A stretch of DNA of 64,000 bases, from positions 1,350 to 65,349 of the forward strand of contig CADBXS010000004.1 of assembly GCA_902798705.1 (NCBI GenBank). Direction: 5' to 3'. This stretch comes from an uncultured Bacteroidales bacterium (GTDB lineage Bacteria > Bacteroidota > Bacteroidia > Bacteroidales > Bacteroidaceae). Below, piece after piece: positions 28,854 to 52,592 of the stretch. The translations under genes and the position numbers were made by a program. How positions within the stretch are numbered: the first letter of the stretch is position 1; the number at the start of each line of letters is the position of its first letter. The notes beneath the pieces were generated by a model. That model did no database searches, was not told where the DNA came from, and saw nothing but the letters and a program-made list of their open reading frames with translations.

Positions 28854-29306
28854 TTAAGAGTTGTAACTACTCCCCACCCTATCAGGGATGGGAAGGGGAA
28901 GGGTCTGCACTGTTCTTGTTCCATCTTCCAACTCCTCGATGCTAACTTTCACTGTGTCCTCTGGGAGCAGGACCTCGATGAGTTCTGGCCATTCCATGAA
29001 GCACAGATGTCCGCTATACACATATTCTTCAAAACCGATGTCGTATGCCTCGCTTTCCTTCTTGATACGATAGAAATCGAAATGGAATATTGGTTCTCCA
29101 TTCCCATCGGTATATTCATTCACAATGGCAAATGTGGGAGAATTAACAACATCCTCCACACCCAGTTCCTCACAGATGGCCTTGATGAAAGTGGTCTTTC
29201 CCGCTCCCATCTTTCCATAGAAGGCAAACACCTTGTTATCACCCATCTGGGCAACAAATTCCTTTGCTGCCTCCTGTATTCTGTCTATCGAATCTATCTT
29301 GATCAT
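28854..29306 (-). CDS. tsaE: tRNA t6A37 threonylcarbamoyladenosine biosynthesis ATPase TsaE
   Basis: The P-loop [12 protein letters not shown] is followed by [12 protein letters not shown], which is typical of YjeE/TsaE. Its start overlaps the upstream ORF's stop by 4 nt. Confidence 0.85.
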
Positions 29307-30698
29307 CTTTTTCGTTTACTTGTCAGTGTCACGAGTGGAATCAGCATTTCCTCCATCGAGATTCCTCCATGCTGGAAAGTGTTCTTATAGTACGACACAT
29401 AGTAGTTGTAGTTGTTCGGATATGCGAAGAACGTGTCGCCCTTGGCAAACACATAACTCGTCGAGAGGTTTGGAGCAGGCAGGAAGGCCTTCTTCGGATT
29501 CTTCAGCACAAAGAGGTCTTTGGCATTGTACGAGAGGTTCTTGCCCAACTTATAGCGAAGATTCGTGTTTGTATTCTTATCGCCAATAATCTTCGTCGGA
29601 TTGTTCACACGGATAGAACCGTGGTCGGTGGTAATCACAATCTTTGCATTCGTATTCGCCAGCGCATGGAACAGTTCATTCACAGGCGAATGGCGGAACC
29701 AGCTCGACGTGATGCTGCGATAAGCAATCTCGTCGGATGCCAATTCGCGCACCATCGTGGATTCTGTGCGGGCATGGGAAAGCATATCGATGAAGTTCAC
29801 CACAATCACGTTCAACTGCTTCGTGGAGAGCTGACGGAACTGATTGACGAGTTTCTCTGTCTCTGCCGAGTGATTCAACTTCGAGTAAGTGAAACTCTCG
29901 CTACGACGGTAGCGGTCGAGTTGTGTCTGAATCAGCGGAGCCTCATTGAGGTTCTTGCCTTCTTCCTCGTCCTCATCCACCCACAACTCTGGAAACATCG
30001 TGGCAATCTGATTAGGCATCAGTCCGGCGAAGATGGAATTGCGGGCATACTGCGTGGCTGTAGGGAGAATCGACACATAGAGGTTCTCGTCGAAAGTGAA
30101 ATCATCAGCCAACTGCTGACTAATCACGCGCCACTGGTCGTAGCGGAAATTGTCGAACACCACCAGATACACCTGTTCGCCAACATTGAGCAGAGGAAAT
30201 ATCACCTTCTTGAAGATGTCGGGACTCATGATAGGACGATGGTCGGGGTCGTTCAACCAGTCGATATAGTTCTTCATGATGAACTTGGCAAATTCCTGAT
30301 TGGCATCTGCCTTCTGCATCTGAATCATCTCCTTCATCGGACTATCGGTCTCAGCTAACTCCAGCTCCCAAAACACCAGCTTCTTATACACTTCCTTCCA
30401 GTCGTCGAGATTGCGAGCATCATTGATTTGCATACTGATATTCCCGAAGTTCTGCTGATAGCTGCTATTCGTCTGATTTGTCTCGATGGCCTTCTTGTGC
30501 AGATGTCGCCAGTCCTGTCAAACCAGGCATATTCTCATCCAAGAAAATCAAGTCGAAGTTTCGTTCTTGACACAAGTCGATGGCATCCTGCCCATTCGTA
30601 GCAGTCACCACCTCATAGTCCTTCTTCTCTAAAAATATTATATGTGGGCGAAGCAATTCAATCTCATCATCCACCCACAGCAATGTTCCCTGTGCCAT
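29303..30698 (-). pseudogene. porX: porX-like response regulator with a PglZ (alkaline-phosphatase superfamily) domain, split by an internal deletion plus frameshift
   Basis: ORF 30465-30698 encodes the first ~63 aa of a CheY-like receiver (LLWVDDE..DLIFLDENMPGLTGL) and then leaves the frame. A second frame resumes at ..HLHKKAIETNQTNSSYQQNFGNISMQINDA and continues through ORF 29303-30433 (FDNFRYDQW, TDHGS: PglZ motifs). About 50-55 aa of the receiver are missing, including the conserved T and K-P positions. Confidence 0.7.
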
Positions 30699-30912
30699 AT
30701 CGTTAAGTTTTAAGTTTTTAAGATTATGTAATGATAAAAAAATAAATTAGTACGATTTACTCATATTTTGGAGATGTTTTTGTTCGTTTTTGAAGGAGTG
30801 ATGCGGGCATCATGACTGAGAAAACGGGCTAAAACAGCCCAAAAGATGAGCACAACATGAGGTCAATATGAATGTATCTAAATGTACCAAGTTATTTTTT
30901 TATCGTTACTAT

Positions 30913-30951: not shown

Positions 30952-33870
30952 CTAGAAAATAAAGTTGTCTTCTTCCGGCCCTTCATCGTCATCGTTTCCT
31001 TGTTGCTGCATGTCCTCCAACTCTTCTTGCGTAGGCAGGTCAGTTGGTTCGTCGAGCATGTTTTCATCCAGCTGCAAATGCGAGATGCGGTCGAAATGTC
31101 GGTCGTAGAAATTAAAGTATTCCTCGAAACTCTTGCCGTTCATCAGCACCTTCAAGTTGTCCTCCGAGATGATAAACATCTTCAGTCCTTCCAACTTCTT
31201 CGACATCTCCTCGTTGTTCGTCAACTTGTGCATATAGACGTATGCCTCATCGTAGTTCAAGAAACTCTTCACTTCCAAGAGGTCGATGCCGTCGCCACGA
31301 AGGGTTTCCAAATCGAAATAGCGAATGGCGAAGTTCGAGAAGTTGTAGCGAGCCACTTCGAAAATCAACTGGTTCTCGTCGATGCTGTCATGCTCGTATG
31401 CAATCACAAACAGATGGTTCACATTCTTATCCACCTTGAACACAGTGTCAGCACTCGTAGAGTCAGCCAAAGCCATACCCATGCGGCGGCTCCAGATATC
31501 TCCTGAGCTCATCCTACCACTGGCGAGAATACGTCCTTCTTGCAAGCCCTTCACATAGAGTCCTGCCAATTCGCTCACCGTACTCTGCGGATAGGTCTGC
31601 ACGATGTTCTTCATGGCATTCATAAACTGCCCACGGTCTCCTTTCTCCAGCTTACTCATGGCATCGATGAAGAGGAATCGAGCACGGTTGGCACCCTTTG
31701 GATATTCGCGTTCGGCGTATGTGTTACCAGCAATCACCTGGTCGAAGTCACCTGCCTCATAGAATTCGTAGGCGGCAGTATAGAGTGAGTCCTCCACCTG
31801 CTTGCCATAACGACCTTTGAATTCGAAGTTTGGGTCTGCCACCAGCTTGGCATGTTCATTCTCTGGATAGCCATCTACTAACCGCTTCCTATAGTCCTCG
31901 GCCTCCGTTTCTCGCCCTTGTCGGGCATAGAGCTGGAACATGTTATAGTACAACTCATCCAAATGCTCAAATTCCTCGAAGTCAACGAGCACTCTTTGGA
32001 AGGTTCGCTCTGCCAAAGGGAAGTTCTCCATTCGGTCTTTATAGATGATAGCAGAATTATAAAGGCCATCCACCAAGGCTGCGTTCGATGTTGCCATCTG
32101 TTCCTCAGTGTAAGGGATGTCCTTAATATAGTATTCACGTCGGTGAGGGTCGGCTTCGTATTCCTTCTGCTTCTCCAACCGTTCCTTTTCTTTTTCGCTG
32201 AGTTCTGTGCCGTCAGGATTAAGCATGGTGGAGTCGTTGGCAAGACCTTCACTCATCACACTGTCGGTCATCAGCGAATCGCCTTCAGCCATGTCTTCGT
32301 CGAAACTGCCCAAAACGGTCTTGTTGCTACGCCGCCAGTTGTCCGCCAACTCACGTTCGCCCCATTTCCGCTTGAACTCCGCCTTTCCAGCATTTACAGA
32401 CGATGGATTGTAGAAGTACCACAAACCGCCTTGCTGCTGGTTGTTGTTCGCACCCATTTGGTTGTTCATCGGTTGGTTCGGACGATTTCCTTCTGCAGTG
32501 ATACCCGCAGCTTCGTTCTGCTTGCGCTCTTCCTCACGTTCCTTCTTCTTCAGTTCCTCAATCAGTCCGTCAATCTTCTTCAGCATCTCCGTAGAGTCCA
32601 TCTTCGCCAACTCCTGCAAGCTGTCTTGCAGTTCCACAGCCTGAGCGTATGGTTTCAGCTCTTCCAGTATCTTGGCTCTTTCGTCGATGTCCTTATAGTC
32701 GTCACGGTCCTTATCGAACAGTCCTAACACACCTGAATAGCATTCCTGTGCCTTAACGAATTCTTCCCTATCCCAATAGAGCTGTCCCAAATGCAGCCAC
32801 ACCACACCTTTTTCCACACCATTACGTGTACTCTTCTCCACTCCGTCCTTATAGGCATAGAGAGCATGGAGTGTATCGCCTTGGGCCAAATAGATGTTGC
32901 CCATGGCATAATACACCTGGTCCAAGTATTCAGCATTCTTGCGGTTGCGAGCCATTGCCTTCAACTTGCCAATCATCTTCTTGCTCTGTCCCTTCGACAT
33001 CACCTCGGTCTGCTGTATCCGTGCATTGAACTCCAGTTCGTAAGGCGGATTGCTCTTGAACACCTTCTTGAATTCCTTGAAGGCCAACTTGTTTTGACCT
33101 GTTTCGCGATACAGTTGTCCCAGCAGGAAGTGGAGTCGTGCCTTTTCCACGCCATGACTCTTCTTCATTGCCAACTGGATGTTAGGGATGGCTTCCTCAT
33201 ACAGTCCCTGGCGCAACTGATAGTCAGCCATCACCGAAGCACGCAAGGCATTGAGATTCGTCGGAAAACTGTCTCTCCGAGTCTCGTTCACCAGTCGTTC
33301 GGCATCATAGAGCCAGTCCAACTCGGCATAGCACTTGGCTTCCGACAGTCGAGCACGAGCAATGAGATTTGGTTTGGAGAAATAAAGACGCTGGATATAG
33401 GCAAAGGTGGAAGCAGCTTCCATATATTCACCTTTCCTGAATTGTGCCTCACCCATCAGGAACCAAGCCCTCCACAAGAACGGATTATACTCCTTCTGAC
33501 TCAGCCAAATCTTGTCCTTCGGCGTTTTCGGCTTCGAACTTTTCCAGTCAGGACGAGCCGTAATGGTATGCTGCTTGATGGTCTTCTGGCATTTCTCCAC
33601 AGCACGGTCGAATTGCCCCTTACCCAGCGCAACCGTTTTCGGATTTCCCGTTACATAGAGTGGAATCACCTCCATATAATTATCCTTATTCCCCGTTCTT
33701 TGTGTTTGCACACCCTCTTTATAAGCCTCATGTCCATTGAAGTAAGTATTATAGCGAGCCTTGAACGCCTGCACACGACGCGTCAGTCCCGTATTCTTCT
33801 TTGTAGAACACGAAACCATCAAGCCCATCACCACCAGGCTCACCAACAATGTCAATACTTTCTTCATCAA
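30952..33870 (-). CDS. porW: TPR-repeat periplasmic lipoprotein, PorW/SprE-like T9SS component
   Basis: Lipoprotein signal MMKKVLTLLVSLVVMGLMVSCSTKKN. The N-terminal motif is RRVQAFKARYNTYFNG. Multiple TPR units and a central K/E/Q-rich coiled coil follow. The layout and N-terminus resemble SprE/PorW as I recall them. Confidence 0.6.
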   Translation of the reverse strand: MMKKVLTLLVSLVVMGLMVSCSTKKNTGLTRRVQAFKARYNTYFNGHEAYKEGVQTQRTGNKDNYMEVIPLYVTGNPKTVALGKGQFDRAVEKCQKTIKQHTITARPDWKSSKPKTPKDKIWLSQKEYNPFLWRAWFLMGEAQFRKGEYMEAASTFAYIQRLYFSKPNLIARARLSEAKCYAELDWLYDAERLVNETRRDSFPTNLNALRASVMADYQLRQGLYEEAIPNIQLAMKKSHGVEKARLHFLLGQLYRETGQNKLAFKEFKKVFKSNPPYELEFNARIQQTEVMSKGQSKKMIGKLKAMARNRKNAEYLDQVYYAMGNIYLAQGDTLHALYAYKDGVEKSTRNGVEKGVVWLHLGQLYWDREEFVKAQECYSGVLGLFDKDRDDYKDIDERAKILEELKPYAQAVELQDSLQELAKMDSTEMLKKIDGLIEELKKKEREEERKQNEAAGITAEGNRPNQPMNNQMGANNNQQQGGLWYFYNPSSVNAGKAEFKRKWGERELADNWRRSNKTVLGSFDEDMAEGDSLMTDSVMSEGLANDSTMLNPDGTELSEKEKERLEKQKEYEADPHRREYYIKDIPYTEEQMATSNAALVDGLYNSAIIYKDRMENFPLAERTFQRVLVDFEEFEHLDELYYNMFQLYARQGRETEAEDYRKRLVDGYPENEHAKLVADPNFEFKGRYGKQVEDSLYTAAYEFYEAGDFDQVIAGNTYAEREYPKGANRARFLFIDAMSKLEKGDRGQFMNAMKNIVQTYPQSTVSELAGLYVKGLQEGRILASGRMSSGDIWSRRMGMALADSTSADTVFKVDKNVNHLFVIAYEHDSIDENQLIFEVARYNFSNFAIRYFDLETLRGDGIDLLEVKSFLNYDEAYVYMHKLTNNEEMSKKLEGLKMFIISEDNLKVLMNGKSFEEYFNFYDRHFDRISHLQLDENMLDEPTDLPTQEELEDMQQQGNDDDEGPEEDNFIF

Positions 33871-36962: not shown

Positions 36963-36994
36963 AAATAAAAGGCAGGGCACTTTCGCACCCTGCC
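36963..36994 (-). terminator. Cassette terminator (GGCAGGGTGCGAAAGTGCCCTGCC + T-rich tail on the minus strand)
   Basis: The hairpin lies ~30 nt after the small-ORF stop. The same stem sequence follows the small ORFs at 39893, 45784 and 52564. Confidence 0.7.
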
Positions 36995-37022: not shown

Positions 37023-37184
37023 TTACCACTGATACTGACCGAAGCCCTTCTCTTCCTCTTCGTAACGCTCCTTGCTCTCCGCTGGCTTAGTAGGGTCTGC
37101 AGGAGTGTCCGATGTATTCAGTTGGCAAAGAGTCAGTGAAGGAACTCTCACAAGCGTCTCTGGAATCAAATATACTTTTTTCAT
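37023..37184 (-). CDS. Conserved cassette small protein, copy 1 (53 aa)
   Basis: MKKVYLIPETLVRVPSLTLCQLNTSDTPADPTKPAESKERYEEEEKGFGQYQW, 33 nt after the stop of the 812-aa gene. The start is chosen by alignment with the four other copies; the ORF track extends it to 37217. Confidence 0.75.
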   Translation of the reverse strand: MKKVYLIPETLVRVPSLTLCQLNTSDTPADPTKPAESKERYEEEEKGFGQYQW

Positions 37185-37217
37185 TATTTCAGTCATTTTT
37201 ATAGTTTTTAAAATCAA

Positions 37218-39656
37218 TTACTTCACGATGACCTTGCGAGTCGTACCGTCAGCCATCTTCAAGATGTTCACACCCTTCTCGATACGGTTCAGCTTCACAC
37301 CGTCAACACTGTAGATGCCTTCGTAAGCACCACTGGTCAGAGCATTGAGTGCATTGATAGCAGTTGCATCATCACCACCAAGGTAGAATGCCTTCACATT
37401 GCTGTCCTTTGTGAGGTAAGCACGGTATGGAGTGTTAATCGTAAATTCACCTTCTACCTTGTAGAATGCCTGCTTGCCATTCAGAGTCTGGAGAACATAA
37501 CTACCTTCAGGTACAGTTGTTTCAGCAAACACACCAGTAAGATAACCTGCTGTATAAGGTTCTGTTCCTGCCATTCCAAAATCTGATTGACTTGCATTTA
37601 CGTTTTCATCACCTGCCTGAAGGATATAAGGAGTGTTTGCTTTCAAGTCAGAAACTTCATCGAGAGTGATGGAATTACCATTGACAGCTTCGATAGTGAA
37701 ATATGTAACACCATTAATAGCGTCTGGAACGAAAGGATAGATGCGAGTTGCAAACTTATTAGCATCAATATTTGTTGTTACTTCGGCTTTAACAGCTTCA
37801 GCAACCGTGAAATCAGCATTGCCTTCCTCTGTATAGATGTTTCCACCTGCTTGTGCTGCAATAGAAGAGTTGGTTTTTGTGTTATATATGTTAAAAGCGC
37901 CTTCAGTCGTAGAAGCAACTATTCTGAAAGCCATTTTATTATCACTAATAGTGGTGCCTTGAATCTGCCAATCAGCCCAACCTGCAGCACTGCTGTTATT
38001 CGTTCCATTAGTCAAATATACAGTACCTTCAGGAAGGTCAATACTGATGTAGTAGTCGTTTGGATTCTCTGCATCACCTGCAGAAGTGAATGTGAATGCT
38101 TGTGCCAAGTAAGAAGTTGCGGCATTTTTTACATTTAAGCCATAACCTGTAGGATTATTCGCTGTTGTAGATCCAGGAGTTATAAAAATAGGATTGTCAA
38201 AATAATCATGACCACTTGTAGCGACTTTTATATAGTATTTTGTTCCTTCAGCTGGAGGATTGAGTGCTACATTCTTGTATGATGCAATAGCATCTGAAAG
38301 AGCTTCTGTAGAAGATTCCACTACATCAAGGGTTGCCTCTGCATCATCATATACTTCTTGAGCAGAACTGCGAATTGATATGAAGTCAGATGCCTCAGAA
38401 GATGGGATTTGGAATACTCCATCACCTACATTTGAAGTATTTAAGCCATTAGCTTCTGTTATCTTTTCATAAAGAATACCCTTTGCAGCAGCAATATCAT
38501 CAGCTTCTGTAAGACCACTAATATATGTCAAGTTAAAATAATCGGCTTTAAACCAAGATGAGCTTGAAACTTTGATTTCAGCTTGACCTGAGGAAATCAA
38601 AACATCATCAATTGAAACTGTTGTTCCTGTTTCTTTGTTCTCGGTTATAACAGTATTACTACCGCTTCCAAACGAAAGAGTAACTTCTTTGCCATTATCA
38701 CTGGAAACTATTGCAGAAATAGCATAATGACCTTGAGGCAAGTTATTAATTGTCTGCGTAACATAAAAATCTACAGGCGATCCATTCCATGTGTTGAAAA
38801 CATAATTACCGTTACTATTACTGAAGCCATAGCTCCCCACACTTGATGCCACTTTTGTGTCTCCAGTTGCAGCTGAATTTGCTGACCAAGCATTAAGATT
38901 TCCTGTTTCAAAAGAATAGTTAGGTACAAGTCCAGTTACGTCAGCATTTGTTGCATCGGTCATATTGTAAAGTTTGAGGTTGTCCCAAATGATGTCGGAA
39001 CGACCGCTATTCACCATGTTTTGAACCAATGAAATCGTAACACTACTCTCTTCTGTTACTTTAAAGAACACACCAAGTTTTGTCCATGGAGCAGTTTTCA
39101 TATAGGTGTCACTACCAGGGTTTGAACCATTATTCGCTATAGAATAGGCACGTTTTACAGCTGCTGTTGTACCAATTGTGGTGTCAGAAGCATCTTTAAC
39201 TGTGATTCCGATTGTAGTTCCATTTTTCCCTGCATTATTATTATTAGAATAATCTGCAGCTTTATAATAGATTTCAGCATAATATAAGCCTACAGGCAGT
39301 GCTTGAGATGTAGTTGTTTTCAATTCAGAGTTTTTATTAGCCCAACCTTGACGATTGAAATAATAATACGTACCATTTTGTGGTGTAATGGAGCCACCAT
39401 TCACGAATCCTGAAGAAGAGCCACTTGCTTCACTCTCCACTTGATAGTTACTCATTGATGGTACTTCCCATCCAAAGAGGCCATTACTTAAAGTGTTTTT
39501 AACAGTGACATCTGTAGTCCCATCTGCAGCTTTGAGTATTTCAAAGTCTGGATTAACAAGGTACGTGCTTGTCACGTCCGTTTGTGCTTGGATGTTGTTC
39601 CATCCGAGCATACCTGTGACTAAAGCCACAGCAAAAAGTAGTCCTTTTCTTTTCAT
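37218..39656 (-). CDS. Cassette cargo 1: 812-aa secreted modular protein with a T9SS C-terminal domain
   Basis: Signal peptide MKRKGLLFAVALVTGMLGWNNIQAQ. It contains CBM-like beta-sandwich modules, a FIVAR-like helical linker and a beta-trefoil-like segment. The shared pre-CTD module is KFATRIYPFVP..ANTPYIL..YVLQTLNGKQAFYKV..YRAYL. The CTD is GIYSVDGVKLNRIEKGVNILKMADGTTRKVIVK. Confidence 0.85.
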   Translation of the reverse strand: MKRKGLLFAVALVTGMLGWNNIQAQTDVTSTYLVNPDFEILKAADGTTDVTVKNTLSNGLFGWEVPSMSNYQVESEASGSSSGFVNGGSITPQNGTYYYFNRQGWANKNSELKTTTSQALPVGLYYAEIYYKAADYSNNNNAGKNGTTIGITVKDASDTTIGTTAAVKRAYSIANNGSNPGSDTYMKTAPWTKLGVFFKVTEESSVTISLVQNMVNSGRSDIIWDNLKLYNMTDATNADVTGLVPNYSFETGNLNAWSANSAATGDTKVASSVGSYGFSNSNGNYVFNTWNGSPVDFYVTQTINNLPQGHYAISAIVSSDNGKEVTLSFGSGSNTVITENKETGTTVSIDDVLISSGQAEIKVSSSSWFKADYFNLTYISGLTEADDIAAAKGILYEKITEANGLNTSNVGDGVFQIPSSEASDFISIRSSAQEVYDDAEATLDVVESSTEALSDAIASYKNVALNPPAEGTKYYIKVATSGHDYFDNPIFITPGSTTANNPTGYGLNVKNAATSYLAQAFTFTSAGDAENPNDYYISIDLPEGTVYLTNGTNNSSAAGWADWQIQGTTISDNKMAFRIVASTTEGAFNIYNTKTNSSIAAQAGGNIYTEEGNADFTVAEAVKAEVTTNIDANKFATRIYPFVPDAINGVTYFTIEAVNGNSITLDEVSDLKANTPYILQAGDENVNASQSDFGMAGTEPYTAGYLTGVFAETTVPEGSYVLQTLNGKQAFYKVEGEFTINTPYRAYLTKDSNVKAFYLGGDDATAINALNALTSGAYEGIYSVDGVKLNRIEKGVNILKMADGTTRKVIVK

Positions 39657-39892: not shown

Positions 39893-39922
39893 CAAAAATA
39901 GCAGGGTACAAAAGCACCCTGC
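39893..39922 (-). terminator. Cassette terminator (GCAGGGTGCTTTTGTACCCTGC + T-rich tail on the minus strand)
   Basis: The hairpin lies ~65 nt downstream of the stop of small ORF copy 2. Confidence 0.65.
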
Positions 39923-39984
39923 CACCTTAAATTATAAAAAGAATTTAGTAAATTTTGTCTGTTTCTTTAGGAGATTTCAGTCTT

Positions 39985-40146
39985 TTACCACTGGTACTGA
40001 CCAAAGCCCTTTTCGTCCTCTTCGTAACGTTCCTTGCTCTCCGCTGGCTTAGTAGGGTCTGCAGGAGTGTCCGATGTATTCAACTGGCAAAGAGTCAGTG
40101 AAGGAACTCTCACAAGCGTCTCTGGAATCAAATATACTTTTTTCAT
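39985..40146 (-). CDS. Conserved cassette small protein, copy 2 (53 aa); not in the ORF track
   Basis: My own translation gives MKKVYLIPETLVRVPSLTLCQLNTSDTPADPTKPAESKERYEEDEKGFGQYQW, 39 nt after the stop of the 855-aa gene. Confidence 0.75.
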   Translation of the reverse strand: MKKVYLIPETLVRVPSLTLCQLNTSDTPADPTKPAESKERYEEDEKGFGQYQW

Positions 40147-40185: not shown

Positions 40186-42753
40186 TTACTTCACGATGAC
40201 CTTGCGAGTCGTACCGTCAGCCATCTTCAGGATGTTCACACCCTTCTCGATGCGGTTCAGCTTCACACCGTCAACACTGTAGATGCCTTCGTAAGCACCA
40301 CTGGTCAGAACTTCAAGCGTGTTGATAGCAGTTGCATCACCACCAAGGTAGAATGCCTTTACCTCTCCTGTCGTATTGAGATATGCACGATATGCAGGAA
40401 CTGTTATTGGATCAACAACCTTGTAGAATGCCTGCTTATCATTCTGAGTCTGGAGAACATAACCAGAAGTAATAGTATTTTCAGCAAACACACCTGTGAG
40501 CAAACCTACTGTATATTCTGCATCTACGTGGAAGTCAAAACCCTTCTGAGTGATGTCAATTTCTGCTTCAGAAGCATTCTCAAGGATATATGGAGTGTTT
40601 GCTTCAGGAGCAGAGACTTCTGTCAGAGCAAGCGCATTTCCTTCCTTAGTTTCGCAAGAGTAGAACCTAACACCATCTTTTTTCTCTGGCTTAAATGGGA
40701 AGATACGAGTAGCAAACTTACCAACTCCAAGAGTACCTGGAACATTTGCGATGATGTCTGCATTGTCAGTAAGAACTGTAGCGTCACAGAAACTTACCCA
40801 CATGTGTTCAGCAGTAGCTTTTGCTTCAACAGCCACATTCACTGTAGCAGCTTCAGTAAGTGTAAACTGCACATAGCGCCATTCGAAGCCGCGTCCAGCA
40901 TTATTGTTGGCGTAACTACCTTCAGGAGAGAAGTTAGTAGCACCACTTTTGTCAATACCACGACCTGTGTCACCACGAGGGAAGTCAGAAACAGTACCAA
41001 GCACAGTTTCTCCATTCTTCACAGTCAGGCTCAAACTTACATTATCACTGCTTGCTTGACGACCAGCCACCTTGAATACATATTTACCTGCAGGAAGTAA
41101 TAAATCCTGGTAGTATTTAATTTCCCAACCGCTACTATTCCATGCTGCACCCGATTGCTCCAAATAAGGGCGTGGCTCACCACTCCAATGCTGTTCTGTC
41201 AAAGAACCCGTTGGGCCTTCTTCTTGCCAAGTACCGAGTTCAACACCATATCCATATTCTGTAGTCACAAAATTGTATTCAGCCACCTTCAAATCTTGAA
41301 CATTTGTGTATGAATTTACAGTGGTTTCATCCATACCCAGTGCTATTGCCTTTGGTCTCTCTGCCAGCAATGCTTCGTATGCTAAAGCAGCTTCATAAGC
41401 AGCTTTCGCAGGAGCAACTTCTGTAGCTGTGCCCTCATTGTATGAAGTAAGTACATCAGCATATAATACTTGTGCTTCTGCAGATAGAGTTGCAGCCAAA
41501 GCGTTATAACCAGCTATTTCAGTATATATTTCAATGGATGCTTTGGCATCAATGATTGCAGAAGTCAATGCATTGTAGTTTGCTACAGAAGCCGTATTTT
41601 GGAAATTAGCGACAGCTGTGTTCAGTGCAGTCTCAACCTCAGCATTCATTTTGCCAGAAGGAACTTCTGCTAAAAGTGCATTGATTTCATCCTCAGGCAT
41701 TTCACCAAGATATGTAATAGTCACATTTTTGAAAGACAACCAGTTGATTTCAGCATTTTCAATCTTGAAGCCATATTCAATTGGAGTTCCTGCCACACCA
41801 TCAGCCATAGCTGTATAAGTGCCAAGGCGTCCCTTTCCGCCATTGACTGGTGCGCCAGAGCATGCGTCACTTTCTGCATCACCCACAAAGATCTTTACTC
41901 CCGTCACAGCACCACCACCCTCATTCATGGCACGTACCCATGCACTGACTTTATAGACACCTGTTTCTGTTGGAGTGTAAGAGCCTGTGATGGTAGCATC
42001 TTCTAATTTACCACCACTTGCTACCCACAACTCATGGAATCGCACCTGGAAGCGAGAACCATCTCTCTGACCTTCTGTTGACCAGAAGTTGGTATGCCAA
42101 CCTTGGGTACCGCTATATGTAAACGGATCGACACTATTGTTTGGCACAGCGAAAATATTTGTTGAATTAAGAGTAAGCTTCACGTTCCTAATCTGGCACC
42201 AATCAATCTTGCTATCATCAGTAAGCTTTTTGATACCAAACTCGTATGCCGTGTTCGCGGTCGTCACATCCAAGGTGAAAGAGACATTATGGAAGTTGGC
42301 ATCACCAGCTGCTGCTATATTGGTAATGTCAACGTCGGTTTCACCTGTCAAGAATGCAACAGCATCGCCTGCTTGAGGAAGGGTATTTGGATCAGCAGAG
42401 TTGGTGGCGTTACATGCAAATGCCTCAAAGCTTAGAGTGTAATTACCTGCAGGAAGCACCACCGTACGTCCCATCATCACACCGCTACTACCGAAACCTG
42501 GAGACCAGCTTTCGCCAATACCACCATCAGCATTTGGTGCTGCAAATGCGTGCCATCCAGATGGGAGATTTTGATTATTCCACCATCCAATACCGTCAGA
42601 CTCCTTATGGTTGCTTGAAGTATGGTTATGACCACCACCATTCACAATCCATGTAACATCACCAATATAACTTTCCGTTACATCGGTTTGAGCCCACAAG
42701 CTACTTGCCATAATCATGGCTGTAGCCAAAGTAAGTAATCTTTTTCTTTTCAT
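40186..42753 (-). CDS. Cassette cargo 2: 855-aa secreted modular protein with a T9SS C-terminal domain
   Basis: Signal peptide MKRKRLLTLATAMIMASSLWAQ. It has CBM-like modules and a long Ala-rich FIVAR-like helical region. The shared pre-CTD module is KFATRIFPFKP..ANTPYIL..YVLQTQNDKQAFYKV..YRAYL. The last ~42 codons are nearly identical at the DNA level to cargo 1. Confidence 0.85.
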   Translation of the reverse strand: MKRKRLLTLATAMIMASSLWAQTDVTESYIGDVTWIVNGGGHNHTSSNHKESDGIGWWNNQNLPSGWHAFAAPNADGGIGESWSPGFGSSGVMMGRTVVLPAGNYTLSFEAFACNATNSADPNTLPQAGDAVAFLTGETDVDITNIAAAGDANFHNVSFTLDVTTANTAYEFGIKKLTDDSKIDWCQIRNVKLTLNSTNIFAVPNNSVDPFTYSGTQGWHTNFWSTEGQRDGSRFQVRFHELWVASGGKLEDATITGSYTPTETGVYKVSAWVRAMNEGGGAVTGVKIFVGDAESDACSGAPVNGGKGRLGTYTAMADGVAGTPIEYGFKIENAEINWLSFKNVTITYLGEMPEDEINALLAEVPSGKMNAEVETALNTAVANFQNTASVANYNALTSAIIDAKASIEIYTEIAGYNALAATLSAEAQVLYADVLTSYNEGTATEVAPAKAAYEAALAYEALLAERPKAIALGMDETTVNSYTNVQDLKVAEYNFVTTEYGYGVELGTWQEEGPTGSLTEQHWSGEPRPYLEQSGAAWNSSGWEIKYYQDLLLPAGKYVFKVAGRQASSDNVSLSLTVKNGETVLGTVSDFPRGDTGRGIDKSGATNFSPEGSYANNNAGRGFEWRYVQFTLTEAATVNVAVEAKATAEHMWVSFCDATVLTDNADIIANVPGTLGVGKFATRIFPFKPEKKDGVRFYSCETKEGNALALTEVSAPEANTPYILENASEAEIDITQKGFDFHVDAEYTVGLLTGVFAENTITSGYVLQTQNDKQAFYKVVDPITVPAYRAYLNTTGEVKAFYLGGDATAINTLEVLTSGAYEGIYSVDGVKLNRIEKGVNILKMADGTTRKVIVK

Positions 42754-45537: not shown

Positions 45538-45586
45538 TCACTTGAAGAATTTATTTATTAATCATAAAAAAACAGACATGAAAATC

Positions 45587-45751
45587 ATGAAAAGATACGA
45601 AGCTCCAGAAATGAAAATGCGTCAGATATCATTGGCAAGCATAATGCAGCAATCTCCATTAGACATTCATGATGAAATTGGTGGTGGCCAGCTTACGAAG
45701 GAGCGTGATGACGCTGAAGCTGAAGGCTGGAACGAGAATGGCCTCTGGTGA
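45587..45751 (+). CDS. Conserved cassette small protein, divergent copy 3 (54 aa)
   Basis: MKRYEAPEMKMRQISLASIMQQSPLDIHDEIGGGQLTKERDDAEAEGWNENGLW. It has the same position, size and MK+/Y/PE/SL/KER/acidic/terminal-W pattern as the other four. The ORF track extends the start to 45542. Confidence 0.6.
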   Translation: MKRYEAPEMKMRQISLASIMQQSPLDIHDEIGGGQLTKERDDAEAEGWNENGLW

Positions 45752-45783: not shown

Positions 45784-45814
45784 AGCAGGGTGCGTAAGTG
45801 CCCTGCTTTTTTTT
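45784..45814 (+). terminator. Cassette terminator (GCAGGGTGCGTAAGTGCCCTGC + T8)
   Basis: A hairpin plus T-run ~30 nt after the stop of small ORF copy 3. Confidence 0.75.
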
Positions 45815-46716: not shown

Positions 46717-48807
46717 ATGAAAAAAATTACTCAAAACTTAAGATGGCTCGTCACGCTATTGGCTATGATAGTTTGCACGGGCGCGTGGGCACAAGAAACT
46801 GGTACCATTATCTTTGGTAATAACGGAACAAAGATAACAAAAGCCTCTGTTACAGGTGATGATGATAAAGGTAATACTTGGACCATTACTTCTACTGGTA
46901 CAACTTCTTATACTCAAAATACGAATTATAGTCAAGTTGGAAAATCTACTGAACCAGCCACCAGTATTACTTTTACTACTACGTTAACAGATGATGTGAC
47001 CTTTACTTCTTTTTCCGCAAAGTTCGGAGGTTTCAGTGGAACAGCAGGAACAGTCACTCTGAAAGTCGGTAACACAACTGTAGGTACAGGAAGCTTAAAT
47101 GGCTCGAATGATGTTACTGTTAGTTCAACTACATCGGAGACTGGTAAGGTTCTCACTGTAACTGTGACAGGTATATCAAGAGGCGTGAAGTGCTATTATA
47201 TTTCATATACGTATACTTCTGCTTCTGGAAAGCAGAATTCCCAAATAGCATGGAGCGCAAGTGAGGCTTCTGCCACTATGGGCAACAATTTTAATAATGC
47301 TCCAACGTTGTCCAACCCTTATAATTTACCTGTTACTTACAATTCAAGTGCTCCAACCGTTGCAACTATCGGTAATAATGGTGCAATCACTCTTGTTGGT
47401 GCAGGAACAACTACCATTTCAGCTGTGTTTGTTGGTGACGACACATACGATGCTAAGACTGTTAGCTATACACTGACCGTCAGCAAGCAAGATGTGACAT
47501 TGTCTTTCTCTGAGACATCATTCAATATAGATTTTGATGACAAGGATTCTTTTGAAGAGCCAACTTTAACTGGTGTTCCAGAGGGTTTGACTGTCACTTA
47601 TGCAAGTAATAAAACCAGTGTTGCAACTGTTGATGCTACAACAGGTGACGTGACAATCGTTGGTAAGGGTTCAGCACAAATCACTGCTACTTTTGCTGCC
47701 ACCGATATTTACAATGGTGCAAGCAAAACTTATACTATCAACGTAACAGGAACTTACAAGAAAGCCAATGGGTACTATGCATTAGTAACAGACGCTTCAA
47801 CACTTGCAGAAGGCGATGAAATCATCATTGTTAACACAGACGCTAATGTTGCATTAAGTACAAATCAAAAAACAAACAATCGTGATGAGATTTCTTTAGC
47901 TAATGCTACTTGGAATGCTGAAAATACTCTTGTTGAGATAACAATCAATGAGACAGGTGATAATGTTCAGGCTTTGACCTTGGAAGCTTCAAGCGACAAA
48001 TGGCTTTTCAATACAGGAAATGGTTATCTTTATGCTGCAAGCAGTTCAAATAATTACATGAAAACAGAAGCAACAGCAGATAACAATGCAAAAGCTACTA
48101 TAAGCATTTCAAACGGTAACGCTACAATTACTTTCAAAGGAAGTAATACTCGCAACACCATATTCTATAATTCAAGTAGTAATTTGTTCTCATGCTATGC
48201 CTCTTCAACTACAAATCAGGATCCAGTTCAGATTTACAGGAAGGTAGCAGTTGTTGAAGGAACTCTTGCTGCAGGCAAGTATGCAACCCGCATCTATCCA
48301 TTTGCTCCAAAGACTATCGAAGGTGTTACATTCTATACTTGTATTGGTGTGAACGGTAATGCACTTGCACTTCAACCAATTGACGAACCAGTAGCTAATG
48401 TTCCTTATATCCTCGGAAACGAAACAACGGATGCCATTGACATCACTCAGATGGGTGTTGACATTCACGAAGCAGATACTTACACAGTAGATTTGCTCAC
48501 TGGTACATTCGTAAACATGGACATCACATCTGGTTATGTTCTCCAGACTCAGAACGGTAAGCAGTCGTTCTATAAGGTTGTTGATGCAATCAACGTACCT
48601 CCTTACCGTGCATACCTCGATTACGATGCAGAAATCAAGGCACTCGGATTTGACGATGCAACTGCTATCAACACACTTGAGGTTCTGACCAGCGGTGCAT
48701 ACGAAGGCATCTACAGTGTTGACGGTGTGAAGCTGAACCGCATAGAGAAGGGTGTGAACATCTTGAAGATGGCTGACGGCACCACTCGTAAGGTGATTGT
48801 GAAGTAA
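46717..48807 (+). CDS. Cassette cargo 4: 696-aa secreted modular protein with a T9SS C-terminal domain
   Basis: Signal peptide MKKITQNLRWLVTLLAMIVCTGAWAQ is nearly identical to that of cargo 5. It has two Big_2-like Ig repeats (PVTYNSSAPTVATIGNNGAITLVGAGTTTISA.. and LTVTYASNKTSVATVDATTGDVTIVGKGSAQITA) and a module shared with cargo 5 (YALVTDASTLAEGDEIIIVN..FSCYAS..VQIYRKV). The shared pre-CTD module and CTD follow. Confidence 0.85.
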   Translation: MKKITQNLRWLVTLLAMIVCTGAWAQETGTIIFGNNGTKITKASVTGDDDKGNTWTITSTGTTSYTQNTNYSQVGKSTEPATSITFTTTLTDDVTFTSFSAKFGGFSGTAGTVTLKVGNTTVGTGSLNGSNDVTVSSTTSETGKVLTVTVTGISRGVKCYYISYTYTSASGKQNSQIAWSASEASATMGNNFNNAPTLSNPYNLPVTYNSSAPTVATIGNNGAITLVGAGTTTISAVFVGDDTYDAKTVSYTLTVSKQDVTLSFSETSFNIDFDDKDSFEEPTLTGVPEGLTVTYASNKTSVATVDATTGDVTIVGKGSAQITATFAATDIYNGASKTYTINVTGTYKKANGYYALVTDASTLAEGDEIIIVNTDANVALSTNQKTNNRDEISLANATWNAENTLVEITINETGDNVQALTLEASSDKWLFNTGNGYLYAASSSNNYMKTEATADNNAKATISISNGNATITFKGSNTRNTIFYNSSSNLFSCYASSTTNQDPVQIYRKVAVVEGTLAAGKYATRIYPFAPKTIEGVTFYTCIGVNGNALALQPIDEPVANVPYILGNETTDAIDITQMGVDIHEADTYTVDLLTGTFVNMDITSGYVLQTQNGKQSFYKVVDAINVPPYRAYLDYDAEIKALGFDDATAINTLEVLTSGAYEGIYSVDGVKLNRIEKGVNILKMADGTTRKVIVK

Positions 48808-48841: not shown

Positions 48842-49003
48842 ATGAAGAAATCATATTTGATTCCAGAGACCATTGTGAGAGTTCCTTCGCTGACTCTTTG
48901 CCAGCTGAGTACATCGGACACTCCAGCAAACCCTCAGGTGCCTGTAGATAGCAAGGAGCGTCACGAAGAGGAAGAGAAGGGCTTCGGTCAGTACCAGTGG
49001 TAA
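48842..49003 (+). CDS. Conserved cassette small protein, copy 4 (53 aa); not in the ORF track
   Basis: My own translation gives MKKSYLIPETIVRVPSLTLCQLSTSDTPANPQVPVDSKERHEEEEKGFGQYQW, 34 nt after the cargo stop. Confidence 0.75.
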   Translation: MKKSYLIPETIVRVPSLTLCQLSTSDTPANPQVPVDSKERHEEEEKGFGQYQW

Positions 49004-49103: not shown

Positions 49104-49218
49104 ATGTAGAGTCGGAGTGTTCATTTTTTCGTATGTCACTGATTGCATACGAAAGTGTTGATTTTCATGTCATTTGCAATTTATTTTGAAAAAAGGCGAT
49201 AGGGTTCAAAAAAAATTG

Positions 49219-49292: not shown

Positions 49293-52200
49293 ATGACAAT
49301 GAAAAGAATTACGCAAAACCTAAGATGGCTCGTCACGCTATTGGCAATGATAGTTAGCACGGGTGCGTGGGCAGAAGAAACTATTACTTTGTCTGAGCAA
49401 GGCTATACAGATGGAGAGGAAGTTTCTTCAACTGTAGGAACGGACTTTACAATCACTTATAACAAAGGAACATCAACTGCAGCACCTAAATATTATAACA
49501 CAGGTGAAGGTGTACGAGTTTATGCAGGAGGAAATGTAGTGGTTTCTTCAGAGAAAATAATGACAAAAGTAGTTTTCACCTATACAAAAAATAATAGTCC
49601 TACAGTAGAAATTGGAAATAAAACCGTAAGCTCCCCAGCGACATGGGAAGGCTCAGCTAAATCTGTGCAATTAGATGTCAAAACAAAAGGCCACATTCGT
49701 TTGCAGTCGGTAACAGTCACTTTTGAAGATGATGGAGAAGCTACTCTTATAACTATTGCAGAAGCACGCGCTCTAGGAACAGGTTCTGTTTACACTTCGG
49801 GTGTTGTAACCAGCTGCGTTGGAACAAATGCATATATTCAAGATGCTACAGCAGCTATTTGTGTTTATGGTAATGCAAATCTTGTTGTTGGCAATGAAAT
49901 TACTGTTCAAGGAACGCTGACTACTTACAACGGATTACTGGAAATAATGAATCCTACTTGTACGGTGGTTTCCTCTGGCAATTCGATTAGTCCTACAGTA
50001 AAGACAATCGCCGAGATCAACACGGACTATGCAGGAAACAATGAACTCCAAGGTGTGCTTGTGAAAATTGAGAATGCTACTGTGAATGCTAAAGATGGTC
50101 AGAACACTACTATTGCTCAAGGTAATAACACCATTGTTGTTCGTGGTATTTCTTCAAATGTCACCTTTGGTGTGGGTGATGTCATCACTCTTACTGGTAA
50201 TGTGGGATGCTATAATGCTGTTCAAATTGTAAATCCAACAGATGTAGAGGTTAGCCAATTACCTTCCATTACGTTAAGCACAAATGCTATTAATGTATCA
50301 GCAGAGGGAGGAGATGGCACTATAGAAGTGAATCGTAAATATTTCGAGCCAGAATCATTTGAGATTAAATTCTATGAATCAGATGGTACAACAGAAACAG
50401 AAGGTGGTGATTGGCTTTATGTTGAAATCGATGAAAACACTGGCAATATTAATTATATAATTGAAGAAAACGCTGGTGAAGCACGTTCTGCCTATTTCAA
50501 GGTATATGGTATGGATGAAGAAATGAATGAACTCTATTCAGAGTTAATCACTGTCACTCAAGCTGCCTACGTAGCTCCTTCCATTGCTGCCCTTCCATTT
50601 GCATTCGATGGTGGTCGTGCTGACATAGAAGGAACAGATGGCCTCACACAAGAAGGCCTTGATAAAGACTATGCCATTTCTCCTAAGCTGAAATTCGATT
50701 CTACTGGCGACTGGGTGTTGCTTCAATTTGATGAGGCGCCTGGTGACTTGAGCTTTGACATCAAGGGCTATAGCTTTTCTGGTGGTACATTCAAAGTTCA
50801 AACTTCGGTAGATGGTAATACTTACACAGACTTGAAAACTTATACTGATTTAGGTAATACACAATCATCAGAGGTATTCAAAAACTTGAACGAGAATGTT
50901 CGATACATCAAATGGATTTACACAAATAATGTATCTGGCAATGTAGGATTGGGCAATATCAGTCTTACAAAATATGTGGCACCACAGCCTTATACTATGA
51001 CCATCACACCTAATAACAATGCAACTATTAAGGCGTTCTATTATAATGATGTAAATGATTTTATTTGGATTAACAACGGAGATGAAGTACTGTCTAAAAC
51101 AAAGGTGTATATTGCTGTTCATGCTAACAATAACTATGAGGCAAAGAGCGTCACTGTGACCGATGGAAACAATGTAAACGTAACAGTTACCAAGGAGCCA
51201 GTTTATGACGAGAACATAGATCCTGTATGGTCATTTACCATGCCAGAAAGCAATGTGACAGTGTCATGCAAAGTGAAGGAAATTGTAGAATTAAAATTCG
51301 AAAAGGTGACCTCGACAGATGGTCTTTTTGAAGGAGGTGATTATATCATTGTTAATGAGGAGAACTCTAAGGCCATGAGCACTACTCAAAACAGCAATAA
51401 TAGAGGAGCAGCAGAAATAATTTTAGATAATGGCACTGCTACGATTGGTGAAGACACTCAGATATTCACTCTTGAGGGTGGTTCTGATGGTTGGTATTTC
51501 AACACTGGCGATGGATATATATATGCAGCTTCAAAAAGTAGTAATCAGTTGAGAACGAAATCTGAAAAAAACGATGAAGCAAAAGCTGTAATATCGATTG
51601 ATGATGATGGAGATGCAACGATTACATTCCAGAGGGAAGGTCGAAACACAATCATGTTTAACCCTCAAATATTCTCATGCTATGCAAGTAATGCCACAAT
51701 GCAGCCTGTTCAGCTTTACAAAAGGGTGGGACAAAGTCCAATCACTATCGACGAGAATACAACTCTTGCTGTTGGCAAGTATGCAACTCGCATCTATCCA
51801 TTTGCTCCAAAGGCTATAGAAGGCATTACATTCTATTCTTGCAAGGCTGTGAATGGCAATGCTCTCGCTCTCACTCCTGTAACTGAATTGAAAGCCAACA
51901 CTCCTTATATCCTTGGCAACGATGGAGATGGAGCAACTGAGGCTATTAGCATCAAGCAGACAGGTGTTGACAAACACGAGGAAGATACTTACACAGAAGG
52001 TTATCTTACAGGTGTGTTTGCTGCGACGACTGTACCTGAAGGCAGTTATGTTCTCCAGACTCAGAATGAAAAGCAGGCATTCTACAAAGTAGAGGGTGAA
52101 TTTACGATTAACACTCCATACCGTGCATACCTCACTGTGCCTACTGACGTTGCTGGAAATGTGAAGGCATTCTACTTGGGTGTTGACGAAGCAACTGCTA

Positions 52201-52340
52201 TCAACACGCTCGACGTTCTGACCAGCGGTGCATACGAAGGTATCTACAGTGTTGATGGTGTGAAGCTGAACCGCATGGAGAAGGGCGTGAACATCCTGAA
52301 GATGGCTGATGGCACCACTCGCAAGGTCATCGTGAAGTAA
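49293..52340 (+). CDS. Cassette cargo 5: 1015-aa secreted modular protein with a T9SS C-terminal domain
   Basis: The signal peptide is homologous to cargo 4; the start may be the second ATG at 49299 (MKRITQNL). It has an OB-fold-like segment of the kind seen in extracellular nucleases (IAEARALGTGSVYTSGVVTS..VQGTLTTYNGLLEI) and a BACON-like segment (ITLSTNAINVSAEGGDGTIEV). The module shared with cargo 4, the shared pre-CTD module and the CTD follow. Confidence 0.85.
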   Translation: MTMKRITQNLRWLVTLLAMIVSTGAWAEETITLSEQGYTDGEEVSSTVGTDFTITYNKGTSTAAPKYYNTGEGVRVYAGGNVVVSSEKIMTKVVFTYTKNNSPTVEIGNKTVSSPATWEGSAKSVQLDVKTKGHIRLQSVTVTFEDDGEATLITIAEARALGTGSVYTSGVVTSCVGTNAYIQDATAAICVYGNANLVVGNEITVQGTLTTYNGLLEIMNPTCTVVSSGNSISPTVKTIAEINTDYAGNNELQGVLVKIENATVNAKDGQNTTIAQGNNTIVVRGISSNVTFGVGDVITLTGNVGCYNAVQIVNPTDVEVSQLPSITLSTNAINVSAEGGDGTIEVNRKYFEPESFEIKFYESDGTTETEGGDWLYVEIDENTGNINYIIEENAGEARSAYFKVYGMDEEMNELYSELITVTQAAYVAPSIAALPFAFDGGRADIEGTDGLTQEGLDKDYAISPKLKFDSTGDWVLLQFDEAPGDLSFDIKGYSFSGGTFKVQTSVDGNTYTDLKTYTDLGNTQSSEVFKNLNENVRYIKWIYTNNVSGNVGLGNISLTKYVAPQPYTMTITPNNNATIKAFYYNDVNDFIWINNGDEVLSKTKVYIAVHANNNYEAKSVTVTDGNNVNVTVTKEPVYDENIDPVWSFTMPESNVTVSCKVKEIVELKFEKVTSTDGLFEGGDYIIVNEENSKAMSTTQNSNNRGAAEIILDNGTATIGEDTQIFTLEGGSDGWYFNTGDGYIYAASKSSNQLRTKSEKNDEAKAVISIDDDGDATITFQREGRNTIMFNPQIFSCYASNATMQPVQLYKRVGQSPITIDENTTLAVGKYATRIYPFAPKAIEGITFYSCKAVNGNALALTPVTELKANTPYILGNDGDGATEAISIKQTGVDKHEEDTYTEGYLTGVFAATTVPEGSYVLQTQNEKQAFYKVEGEFTINTPYRAYLTVPTDVAGNVKAFYLGVDEATAINTLDVLTSGAYEGIYSVDGVKLNRMEKGVNILKMADGTTRKVIVK

Positions 52341-52374: not shown

Positions 52375-52536
52375 ATGAAGAAAGTATATTTGATTCCACA
52401 GACGATTGTGAGAGTTCCTTCGCTGACTCTTTGCCAGCTGAATACATCGGACACTCCTGCAAACCCTCAGGTGCCTGTAGATAGCAAGGAGCGTCACGAA
52501 GAGGACGAGAAGGGCTTCGGTCAGTATCAGTGGTAA
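52375..52536 (+). CDS. Conserved cassette small protein, copy 5 (53 aa); not in the ORF track
   Basis: My own translation gives MKKVYLIPQTIVRVPSLTLCQLNTSDTPANPQVPVDSKERHEEDEKGFGQYQW, 34 nt after the cargo stop. Confidence 0.75.
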   Translation: MKKVYLIPQTIVRVPSLTLCQLNTSDTPANPQVPVDSKERHEEDEKGFGQYQW

Positions 52537-52563: not shown

Positions 52564-52592
52564 GGCAGGGTGCGTAAGTGCCCTGCTATTTT
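52564..52592 (+). terminator. Cassette terminator (GCAGGGTGCGTAAGTGCCCTGC + T-rich tail)
   Basis: The stem-loop is identical to the one at 45784. Confidence 0.7.

Follow-up and report, generated by a model that had tools for sequence, protein, structure and literature searches.

Within a 64-kb stretch of contig CADBXS010000004.1 from the rumen Prevotella-like genome of an uncultured Bacteroidales bacterium (the whole stretch, 44.8% GC, is called the window below), a small open reading frame (ORF) of about 53 codons recurs just downstream of genes for large, signal-peptide-bearing surface proteins that end in a shared kind of C-terminal tail. The small ORF is a genuine protein-coding gene, and together with the tail-bearing gene that precedes it we are almost certain that it forms an obligate two-gene cassette. 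An earlier note on this DNA, written from the sequence alone, had described the small ORF as a translated gene family; what that note did not describe is how broad the family is and how strictly each small ORF is paired with a surface-protein gene upstream. We regard the small ORF as a cargo-linked accessory gene that represents a new protein family and is coupled to what is probably a new class of tail.

A two-gene cassette

Five copies of the small ORF lie in the window:

c1: 37023-37184, minus strand; 53 aa, MKKVYLIPETLVRVPSLTLCQLNTSDTPADPTKPAESKERYEEEEKGFGQYQW; start 33 nt past the stop of an 812-aa ORF
c2 (the site of the earlier note): 39985-40146, minus strand; 53 aa; start 39 nt past the stop of an 855-aa ORF
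c3 (divergent): 45587-45751, plus strand; 54 aa (57 aa from 45578); start 49 nt past the stop of a 670-aa ORF
c4: 48842-49003, plus strand; 53 aa; start 34 nt past the stop of a 696-aa ORF
c5: 52375-52536, plus strand; 53 aa; start 34 nt past the stop of a 1015-aa ORF

The large ORFs that precede them are as follows (an arrow marks a predicted cleavage site here and below):

A37: 37218-39656, minus strand; 812 aa; Sec-type signal peptide (…NIQAQ↓TD), variable passenger and a C-terminal beta module of ~200 aa ending …GIYSVDGVKLNRIEKGVNILKMADGTTRKVIVK
B40: 40186-42753, minus strand; 855 aa; C-terminal module as in A37
C43: 43525-45537, plus strand; 670 aa; a second tail class, …VIYNLAGQRVSAPVKGNMYIVNGKKVMMK; precedes the divergent c3
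D46: 46717-48807, plus strand; 696 aa; weak Big_2/Big-like matches; C-terminal module common to A37, B40 and E49
E49: 49293-52340, plus strand; 1015 aa; C-terminal module common to A37, B40 and D46

The four close copies (c1, c2, c4 and c5) are retrieved from the window by tblastn at E = 1.7e-34 to 3.9e-28, share 85-96% nucleotide identity with c2, and account for all four matches to a back-translated GFGQYQW pattern, where 0.02 would be expected. The divergent c3 (MKRYEAPEMKMRQISLASIMQQSPLDIHDEIGGGQLTKERDDAEAEGWNENGLW) is ~25% identical to c2 and exactly matches the P0047 cluster of the family described below; it lies inside the ORF 45542-45751(+), with a likely start at 45587 or 45578. In-frame ATGs upstream of c1 (4 codons, MTEI-MKK) and c2 (3 codons, MKT-MKK) leave the exact start ambiguous in those two copies, and MKK is the start conserved family-wide. 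The peptide sequences that had been quoted for four of the copies are all exact, and the family is indeed largely invisible to size-filtered ORF calling, as had been pointed out: c2, c4 and c5 fall below 60 aa and are hence not in the ORF list, while c1 and c3 are listed only as TTG-start ORFs of 64 aa (37023-37217) and 69 aa, respectively.

All five large proteins carry Sec-type signal peptides, and AxA↓Q-type sites are present among them. The N-terminal regions of A37, B40, D46 and E49 are unrelated to one another; their C-terminal ~200 aa are 57-67% identical, and the last 45 residues are nearly so throughout. The same arrangement recurs in 49 other loci (L001-L049), all of which were inspected: the small ORF lies 1-147 nt past a co-oriented ORF of 360-1990 aa that encodes a signal peptide and one of two tail types, and this is kept even for family members only 30-45% identical to c2. 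The spacer between the two genes is short and A/T-rich, with a median of ~36 nt. As to how loci were found, a scan of genome contigs with an alignment of the close family confirmed none, a second version of the broader alignment seeded a genome-contig scan that did yield loci, and a scan of metagenomes gave 5. Intact copies of the small ORF were also present in extra cassettes in the flanks of L002, L032, L039 and L045, which were not themselves targets of the search.

To count from the side of the large gene, we took the 41 distinct tail-bearing ORFs of the window and the 49 loci and sought a family member within 130 nt downstream of each; 38 of the 41 have one, the extra flank cassettes being part of this count. 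An apparent exception, L035, has its small ORF at 147 nt, and L030, which lay beyond a 120-nt scan, has it at 122 nt. A small ORF is truly missing in two cases: for a second ORF of this kind in L046, and for a 2359-aa protein of the window itself (14951-22030, minus strand), which has a signal peptide, a Laminin_G_3 match and a class II tail (…VIYDLNGQRVRVPVKGNIYIVNGKKMFLK). One locus, L042, carries two small ORFs (5781-5987, 68 aa, and 6001-6177, 58 aa) in tandem, 13 nt apart, after a single tail-bearing gene of 544 aa. Stop-codon read-through that would fuse the small ORF to the upstream protein was considered and rejected, as the gaps of 33, 34, 34, 39 and 49 nt place the two ORFs in differing relative frames.

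Coding status and selection

The earlier note had read the small ORF as a translated gene under purifying selection, and the open frame, the in-frame indels, the ratios of nonsynonymous to synonymous substitution (dN/dS) and an excess of synonymous changes all uphold that reading. Fifteen distinct copies from the close subfamily, taken as DNA from the window and from metagenome homologues, were aligned codon by codon. Frame +1 is open in 15/15 and every other frame is interrupted in at least one copy, every gap is a multiple of three, and variable columns number 28, 20 and 41 at codon positions 1, 2 and 3. Frame-breaking indels, which the note had named as the contrary result, were not seen, and this includes the copies in locus flanks that were found independently of the small ORF. 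The dN/dS comparison that it had proposed gave NG86 ratios of 0.04-0.55 among the window paralogues and of 0.10-0.57 among copies chosen to represent both the window and other samples. When the observed substitutions of four pairs were re-placed at random, with stops avoided, the excess of synonymous changes had permutation P-values of 0.0185, 0.0025, <0.0005 and <0.0005.

The synonymous pairs that had been listed between c1 and c4 (aaa/aag, acg/acc, tca/tcg, caa/cag, cct/cca, tat/tac) are all present, with an additional cca/cct, and replacements between these two copies do cluster centrally as claimed, with 8.5 of 12.5 nonsynonymous changes falling within the 16 of 53 codons that make up the middle third. 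The window paralogues have diverged long enough for such comparisons to be informative: dS is 0.09-0.40 in their small ORFs, and the final 47 codons of the genes upstream have a dS of 0.17-0.55 with a dN of 0-0.04. With dS at 0.1-0.55 in both tail and small ORF, the conservation reflects selection, and recent gene conversion was rejected as its cause.

A conserved RNA, such as a terminator leader, or an act of translation that matters irrespective of its product (e.g. by covering the 3′ end of the mRNA), might also account for an ORF that sits between a long gene and its terminator and whose central third is poorly constrained. The evidence makes this highly improbable. Between samples, alleles carry 15 synonymous differences in total and not one replacement (5 and 0 between c2 and L009; 10 and 0 among L003, L004 and L007), the spacers that flank the small ORF are far less conserved than the ORF, and amino-acid motifs are kept in homologues of 45-69 aa at 25-45% identity, where nucleotide similarity is lost. 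Nor is there a sign of RNA structure, so that the conserved-RNA alternative, which the earlier note had likewise disfavoured, gains nothing from fold, covariation or Rfam: the best Rfam match to the small ORF region scores 24.7 bits against a gathering score of 58.7, the RNAalifold consensus energy is -6.3 kcal/mol and its covariation term -0.48 (almost no covariation), and single-sequence folding gives a z-score of +1.19, i.e. no stable fold.

A family of leaderless, acidic small proteins

The family comprises at least 127 distinct proteins of 45-69 aa (median 55), counting database clusters and copies read from loci. A single-sequence search retrieved 22 close clusters of 53-64 aa, all metagenomic and none named; a profile run against 1.84 billion representatives, with a threshold of E<1e-3, picked up 17 clusters, and a broader family profile 87. 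Two proteins were set aside as unrelated, being artefacts of clustering or low complexity: P0096, a 505-aa entry of the P0040 cluster, and P0035, a repeat protein of 218 aa. Source annotations of the members are empty or read ‘hypothetical protein’, and literature searches, both on the topic and with sequence strings, turned up no description of the family. When 3, 27 and 46 members were scanned against Pfam and NCBIfam, there was no match (the best, rSAM_RiPP_SSH, was at E=0.12 in 2 of 27); the small-protein profile matched no PDB sequence, and tblastn found nothing in plasmid and phage collections. All loci with a named origin come from ruminant-gut metagenomes or metagenome-assembled genomes (MAGs) labelled Prevotella, Prevotellaceae or ‘Bacteroidaceae’; one of them, L025, comes from what is in essence the organism of the window.

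Members share one architecture: they begin with MKKxYxxPE and an alternating hydrophobic stretch, in many cases ELQQMIALS; a Pro/Asp-rich (D/N-P) linker comes next, then a conserved basic K/R-x-R cluster (KER, RRR, KRRR and the like), and last an acidic C-terminal tail with aromatic residues, usually Trp-terminated. Y5 and P8 are the sole positions invariant across the family, K3 and R40 being nearly so. The terminal residue is W in 77 of the 127 sequences, and an aromatic residue lies within the final three positions in 105. The invariant GFGQYQW terminus and single Cys that had been reported from the window thus hold for the close subfamily and fail in the wider family, where Cys is missing from 79 of 127 sequences; a lipoprotein reading of the LTLC motif was rejected, as this Cys is not conserved.

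Median net charge over the 127 sequences is -5, and the peptide has no signal peptide by hydropathy criteria and no lipobox. The maximal 10-residue hydropathy has a median of 1.30 in the small proteins versus 2.71 in the signal peptides of their neighbours, and charged residues break the N-terminal hydrophobic stretch, the longest uncharged run in the first 30 residues having a median of 10. An AlphaFold2 (AF2) model of the small protein is extended and lacks secondary structure, with pLDDT of ~70-76 over residues 1-40.

Such an architecture brings to mind the precursors of peptides that are synthesized ribosomally and modified after translation (RiPPs), in which a leader is recognized by the RiPP recognition element (RRE) of the biosynthetic machinery; the YxxPxL motif of lasso peptides and PqqA are examples. 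Here the N-terminal part would be a leader for an enzyme encoded in trans, K/R-x-R a processing site and the acidic Trp tail a core that is modified and/or exported. The resemblance is real at several points: the proteins are ~50 aa long, the alignments show a conserved N-terminal part, a basic cluster and a hypervariable C-terminal part, the terminal aromatic residue is conserved, and several differing copies occur per genome (the window, L032, L045). The invariant Y5 and P8, moreover, recall the lasso YxxP leader and the aromatic-x-x-P of PqqA, a likeness that we offer as a lead and not as a test. Against this, no modifying enzyme, RRE protein, peptidase or exporter adjoins any of the more than 40 cassettes of the window and L001-L049, whose neighbours are unrelated housekeeping genes; no precursor model in NCBIfam or Pfam matches; the tails are low-complexity Asp/Glu runs and not Cys/Ser/Thr-rich cores; and the obligate position after a surface-protein gene is left unexplained. 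A RiPP-like or signalling precursor is therefore quite unlikely in our judgement.

The C-terminal module and the type IX secretion system

The small protein varies together with the C-terminal module of its neighbour and much less with the passenger. Across 42 distinct pairs of small protein and neighbour, the Mantel correlation is 0.72 for the last 45 aa of the neighbour, 0.70 for the preceding 155 aa and 0.26 for the passenger region. Subfamilies can be matched accordingly: …QKGVNI…KVxVK tails go with …ALSxxDxxA(D/N)P…VL(S/G)(K/R)xR… peptides, and …GQRVxxPxKGLYIVNGKKVxVK tails with …A(G/S)S… peptides, whose Gly/Ser/Thr linkers are longer. The evolutionary unit, as far as the sequences can tell, is the C-terminal module plus the small ORF, with passengers grafted on to it.

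Both tail types end in …NGKKVxVK or …KVIVK, which we take to resemble the end of the C-terminal domains (CTDs) by which type IX secretion system (T9SS) cargo is recognized (…G-x-Y-I-V… K-K-V-x-V-K). The window itself encodes T9SS components, namely PorW/SprE (30952-33870, minus strand; 712.8 bits, above the NCBIfam cut-off), ~3 kb from the first cassette, and PorX (29303-30433, minus strand; 572.8 bits, above the NCBIfam cut-off), the two lying 3-8 kb from the cassettes. The upstream proteins are likely to be T9SS cargo with an unrecognized, abbreviated CTD. Predicted signal-peptidase sites in the five large window ORFs and in L028, L029 and L031 are mostly followed by Gln (…AQA↓QTD, …LWA↓QTD, …AWA↓QET, …ANA↓QGW), which fits the ‘Q-rule’ of exported Bacteroidetes proteins, in which Gln follows the cleavage site.

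The proximity of porX and porW to cassettes in the window and in L001 is also what might be expected if the peptide were a cytoplasmic regulator that does not bind cargo but reports cargo load, through its basic-acidic dipole and C-terminal aromatic residue, to a regulator such as T9SS PorXY or another DNA- or protein-binding factor. Its leaderless, acidic and disordered character would suit such a role, as would the short gap to the upstream gene, which implies stoichiometric synthesis. In most other loci, however, the cassettes lie far from any T9SS gene, the matching of peptide subfamilies to tail classes would be unnecessary for a generic load signal, and we know of no precedent; we regard this reading as unlikely.

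Two side observations touch these T9SS genes. The synteny of aroA, a PD-(D/E)XK gene and PorW also adjoins a cassette in L001. The PorX homologue of the window (29303-30700, minus strand) covers profile positions 139-513 only, and the sequence for a receiver domain (MAQGTLLWVDDEIELL…LDENMPGLTGL) lies immediately upstream in a different frame; porX is thus split by a frameshift, either as a real pseudogene or split gene or through an error in the assembly of the MAG.

Modelled with AF2, the last 204 aa of B40 are all-beta (mean pLDDT 81), with about four strands in the last 50 aa. A Foldseek search of this two-domain model against the PDB gave no significant match, and a profile of the module matches the C-termini of two glycoside hydrolases of solved structure: 8bbl_A (E=8.7e-5), a beta-N-acetylhexosaminidase with a similar module and tail at residues 733-901 (…VYNAQGMRLNGMQQGLNVVLFADGTAQKVFMK), and 4kca_A (E=0.014), a GH43 arabinanase from a rumen metagenome with a similar module and tail at residues 640-680 (…IYDLSGRLVTTPLQKGIYIRNGKK). 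The tail therefore also occurs on enzymes, and its structure may already be solved within these two entries.

The shortness of the tail, with its roughly four predicted strands, raises the thought that the peptide might complete or mask an abbreviated CTD outside the cytoplasm, either by strand complementation of the four-strand tail or as an aromatic ligand for a periplasmic PDZ/TPR protein. The alternating, beta-strand-like N-terminus of the peptide, its extended AF2 model and the aromatic residue near the C-terminus of most members agree with this. Against this, the peptide has neither signal peptide nor lipobox, charged residues break its N-terminal hydrophobic stretch, and no exporter is encoded nearby; an exported partner is very unlikely on these grounds.

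Terminators and genomic neighbourhood

Hairpins that resemble terminators follow each of the five small ORFs in the window:

After c1: 36971-36994, minus strand; terminator hairpin GGCAGGGTGCGAAAGTGCCCTGCC, then a T-run; core 36972-36993
After c2: 39895-39928, minus strand; terminator hairpin, core 39901-39922
After c3: 45784-45807, plus strand; terminator hairpin, core 45785-45806, identical to the hairpin after c5
After c4: 49126-49155, plus strand; terminator-like hairpin, weaker and of different sequence
After c5: 52565-52586, plus strand; hairpin with core GCAGGGTGCGTAAGTGCCCTGC

A nearly identical core, GCAGGGTGC-N4-GTNCCCTGC, follows c1, c2, c3 and c5 and is present at no other site of the window (0.01 expected). 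The same core follows small ORFs in the close relatives L001, L002, L010 and L025-L027 and is not found in distant lineages; in the window it is better conserved than the coding sequence of c3. No terminator-like site was found between large gene and small ORF.

Beyond the two genes of the cassette the surroundings vary, and no conserved third gene emerged from the loci examined. The window carries the housekeeping genes cysS, ispG, purE, rpoN, dnaE, tsaE and aroA, and the downstream neighbours in different lineages include aroA, GroES/EL, SusD/SusC, pairs of HEPN and nucleotidyltransferase (NT) genes, FtsY, Pta/AckA, a polyprenyl synthase, Fic, a rhamnogalacturonan (RG) lyase and AbiEii. Past the window's final cassette comes the gene for a HIRAN-domain protein (53119-54432, plus strand), in the place of which L003, L007, L008 and L023 have the HEPN/NT pairs, which are toxin-antitoxin-like. 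The differing genes past the last cassette suggest a variable, island-like boundary.

A possible role for the small protein

That the function of the peptide is tied to the C-terminal module of its neighbour seems to us somewhat better than an even bet. The best explanation overall, which we put forward tentatively and at a little less than an even chance, is that the small protein partners the C-terminal sorting module of the cargo in the cytoplasm, as an extended chain without a leader. Because the small ORF lies tens of nucleotides past the C-terminal module in one apparent transcription unit, we infer that the large gene and the small ORF are co-transcribed and translated back to back, so that the peptide would be made beside, and in step with, the C-terminus of the neighbouring protein. 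It would then remain in the cytoplasm and, before Sec export, bind the conserved sorting module of the pre-protein as an extended or added strand. Once bound, it might act as an escort or holdase dedicated to this cargo, or as a signal of cargo load to the secretion system. That it is specifically a cytoplasmic escort or chaperone is a narrower proposal, which we favour among the mechanisms but consider more doubtful than the general one.

Several observations weigh against this partner hypothesis. A cytoplasmic peptide and a Sec-exported cargo can meet only before export, and to our knowledge no dedicated cytoplasmic escort is known for T9SS cargo. Even with a cut-off of E<=10, neither the type A CTD models (Por_Secre_tail, PF18962/TIGR04183) nor the type B models (TIGR04131/CHU_C) match any of the five complete proteins or of 12 tails taken by themselves; since the CTD models miss the tails, the link to T9SS rests on the resemblance of motifs, the signal peptides and the presence of porW and porX. 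The tail-bearing gene for the 2359-aa protein has no small ORF downstream, a strong terminator hairpin following its stop directly, and the peptide is therefore not universally required. The central third of the peptide evolves almost neutrally. Finally, adjacent sequences are co-inherited by linkage, so that the co-variation of peptide and module shows modular co-inheritance and not contact.

A more specific version holds that the tails represent a third, unrecognized class of T9SS sorting signal, one that needs a co-translated, leaderless partner of ~55 aa encoded downstream, for instance as a licensing escort or as one half of a split signal. We know of no such cargo-specific partner for any Sec-dependent outer-membrane secretion pathway, and rate this version as somewhat unlikely.

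Relation to known systems

By analogy, the nearest described arrangement is the pairing of T9SS substrates that have a type B CTD with PorP/SprF proteins. In Flavobacterium johnsoniae, the SprB/SprF and Fjoh_3952/Fjoh_3951 pairs each consist of a type B CTD substrate and, directly downstream, the gene for its matching PorP/SprF-like shuttle, and orphan substrates without an adjacent partner also occur there (PMC12618676), to which the 2359-aa protein of the window may be compared. In both cases the gene for a Sec-exported, CTD-type surface protein is followed by that for a (here presumed) cargo-specific partner, partner and C-terminal domain co-vary as pairs, and the host has a T9SS. The partners themselves have little in common, PorP/SprF proteins being outer-membrane beta-barrels of several hundred residues with signal peptides, whereas the protein described here is of ~53 aa, leaderless, acidic and unstructured, and the tails, too, are of a kind that neither type B nor type A models recognize.

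Secretion chaperones encoded next to their substrates offer a second comparison, and include the class I chaperones of type III secretion systems (T3SS), VirE1 for VirE2, and the redox enzyme maturation proteins (REMPs) TorD and NapD of the twin-arginine translocation (Tat) pathway. As predicted for our family, these are small acidic cytoplasmic proteins whose gene adjoins that of one cognate exported protein, and they have no enzymatic domain and a holdase or escort role of the sort proposed above. They differ in being folded, in their length of 65-200 aa and in serving T3SS, type IV secretion (T4SS) or Tat export, and the PDB, Pfam and NCBIfam searches revealed no similarity to them in sequence or structure. 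We thus treat T3SS class I, VirE1 and REMP chaperones as functional analogies only.

Polymorphic toxin/immunity pairs, such as those of contact-dependent inhibition (CDI), Rhs and the TANFOR proteins of Bacteroidetes, combine a variable C-terminal toxin with a matching small immunity gene. They, too, place a small ORF after the gene for a large exported protein of many domains, and often recur several times in a genome, but the layout is the opposite one: in the cassettes described here the C-terminal 200 aa are constant and the N-terminal passenger is variable.

Implications for rumen Prevotellaceae

The family is multi-copy and under selection, yet it is missing from Pfam and NCBIfam, and size-filtered gene calling largely loses it; its known distribution so far is confined to uncultured ruminant Prevotellaceae, a group that is dominant among rumen fibre degraders. 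If the peptide is a cargo-specific partner, it would be a new class of component in the secretion or anchoring of the large adhesin-like and glycan-binding surface proteins of these bacteria. It would also follow that T9SS models miss a C-terminal sorting module, and that T9SS cargo has probably been inventoried incompletely in their genomes. With its simple layout, the cassette makes a concrete, testable prediction about secretion in dominant rumen bacteria.

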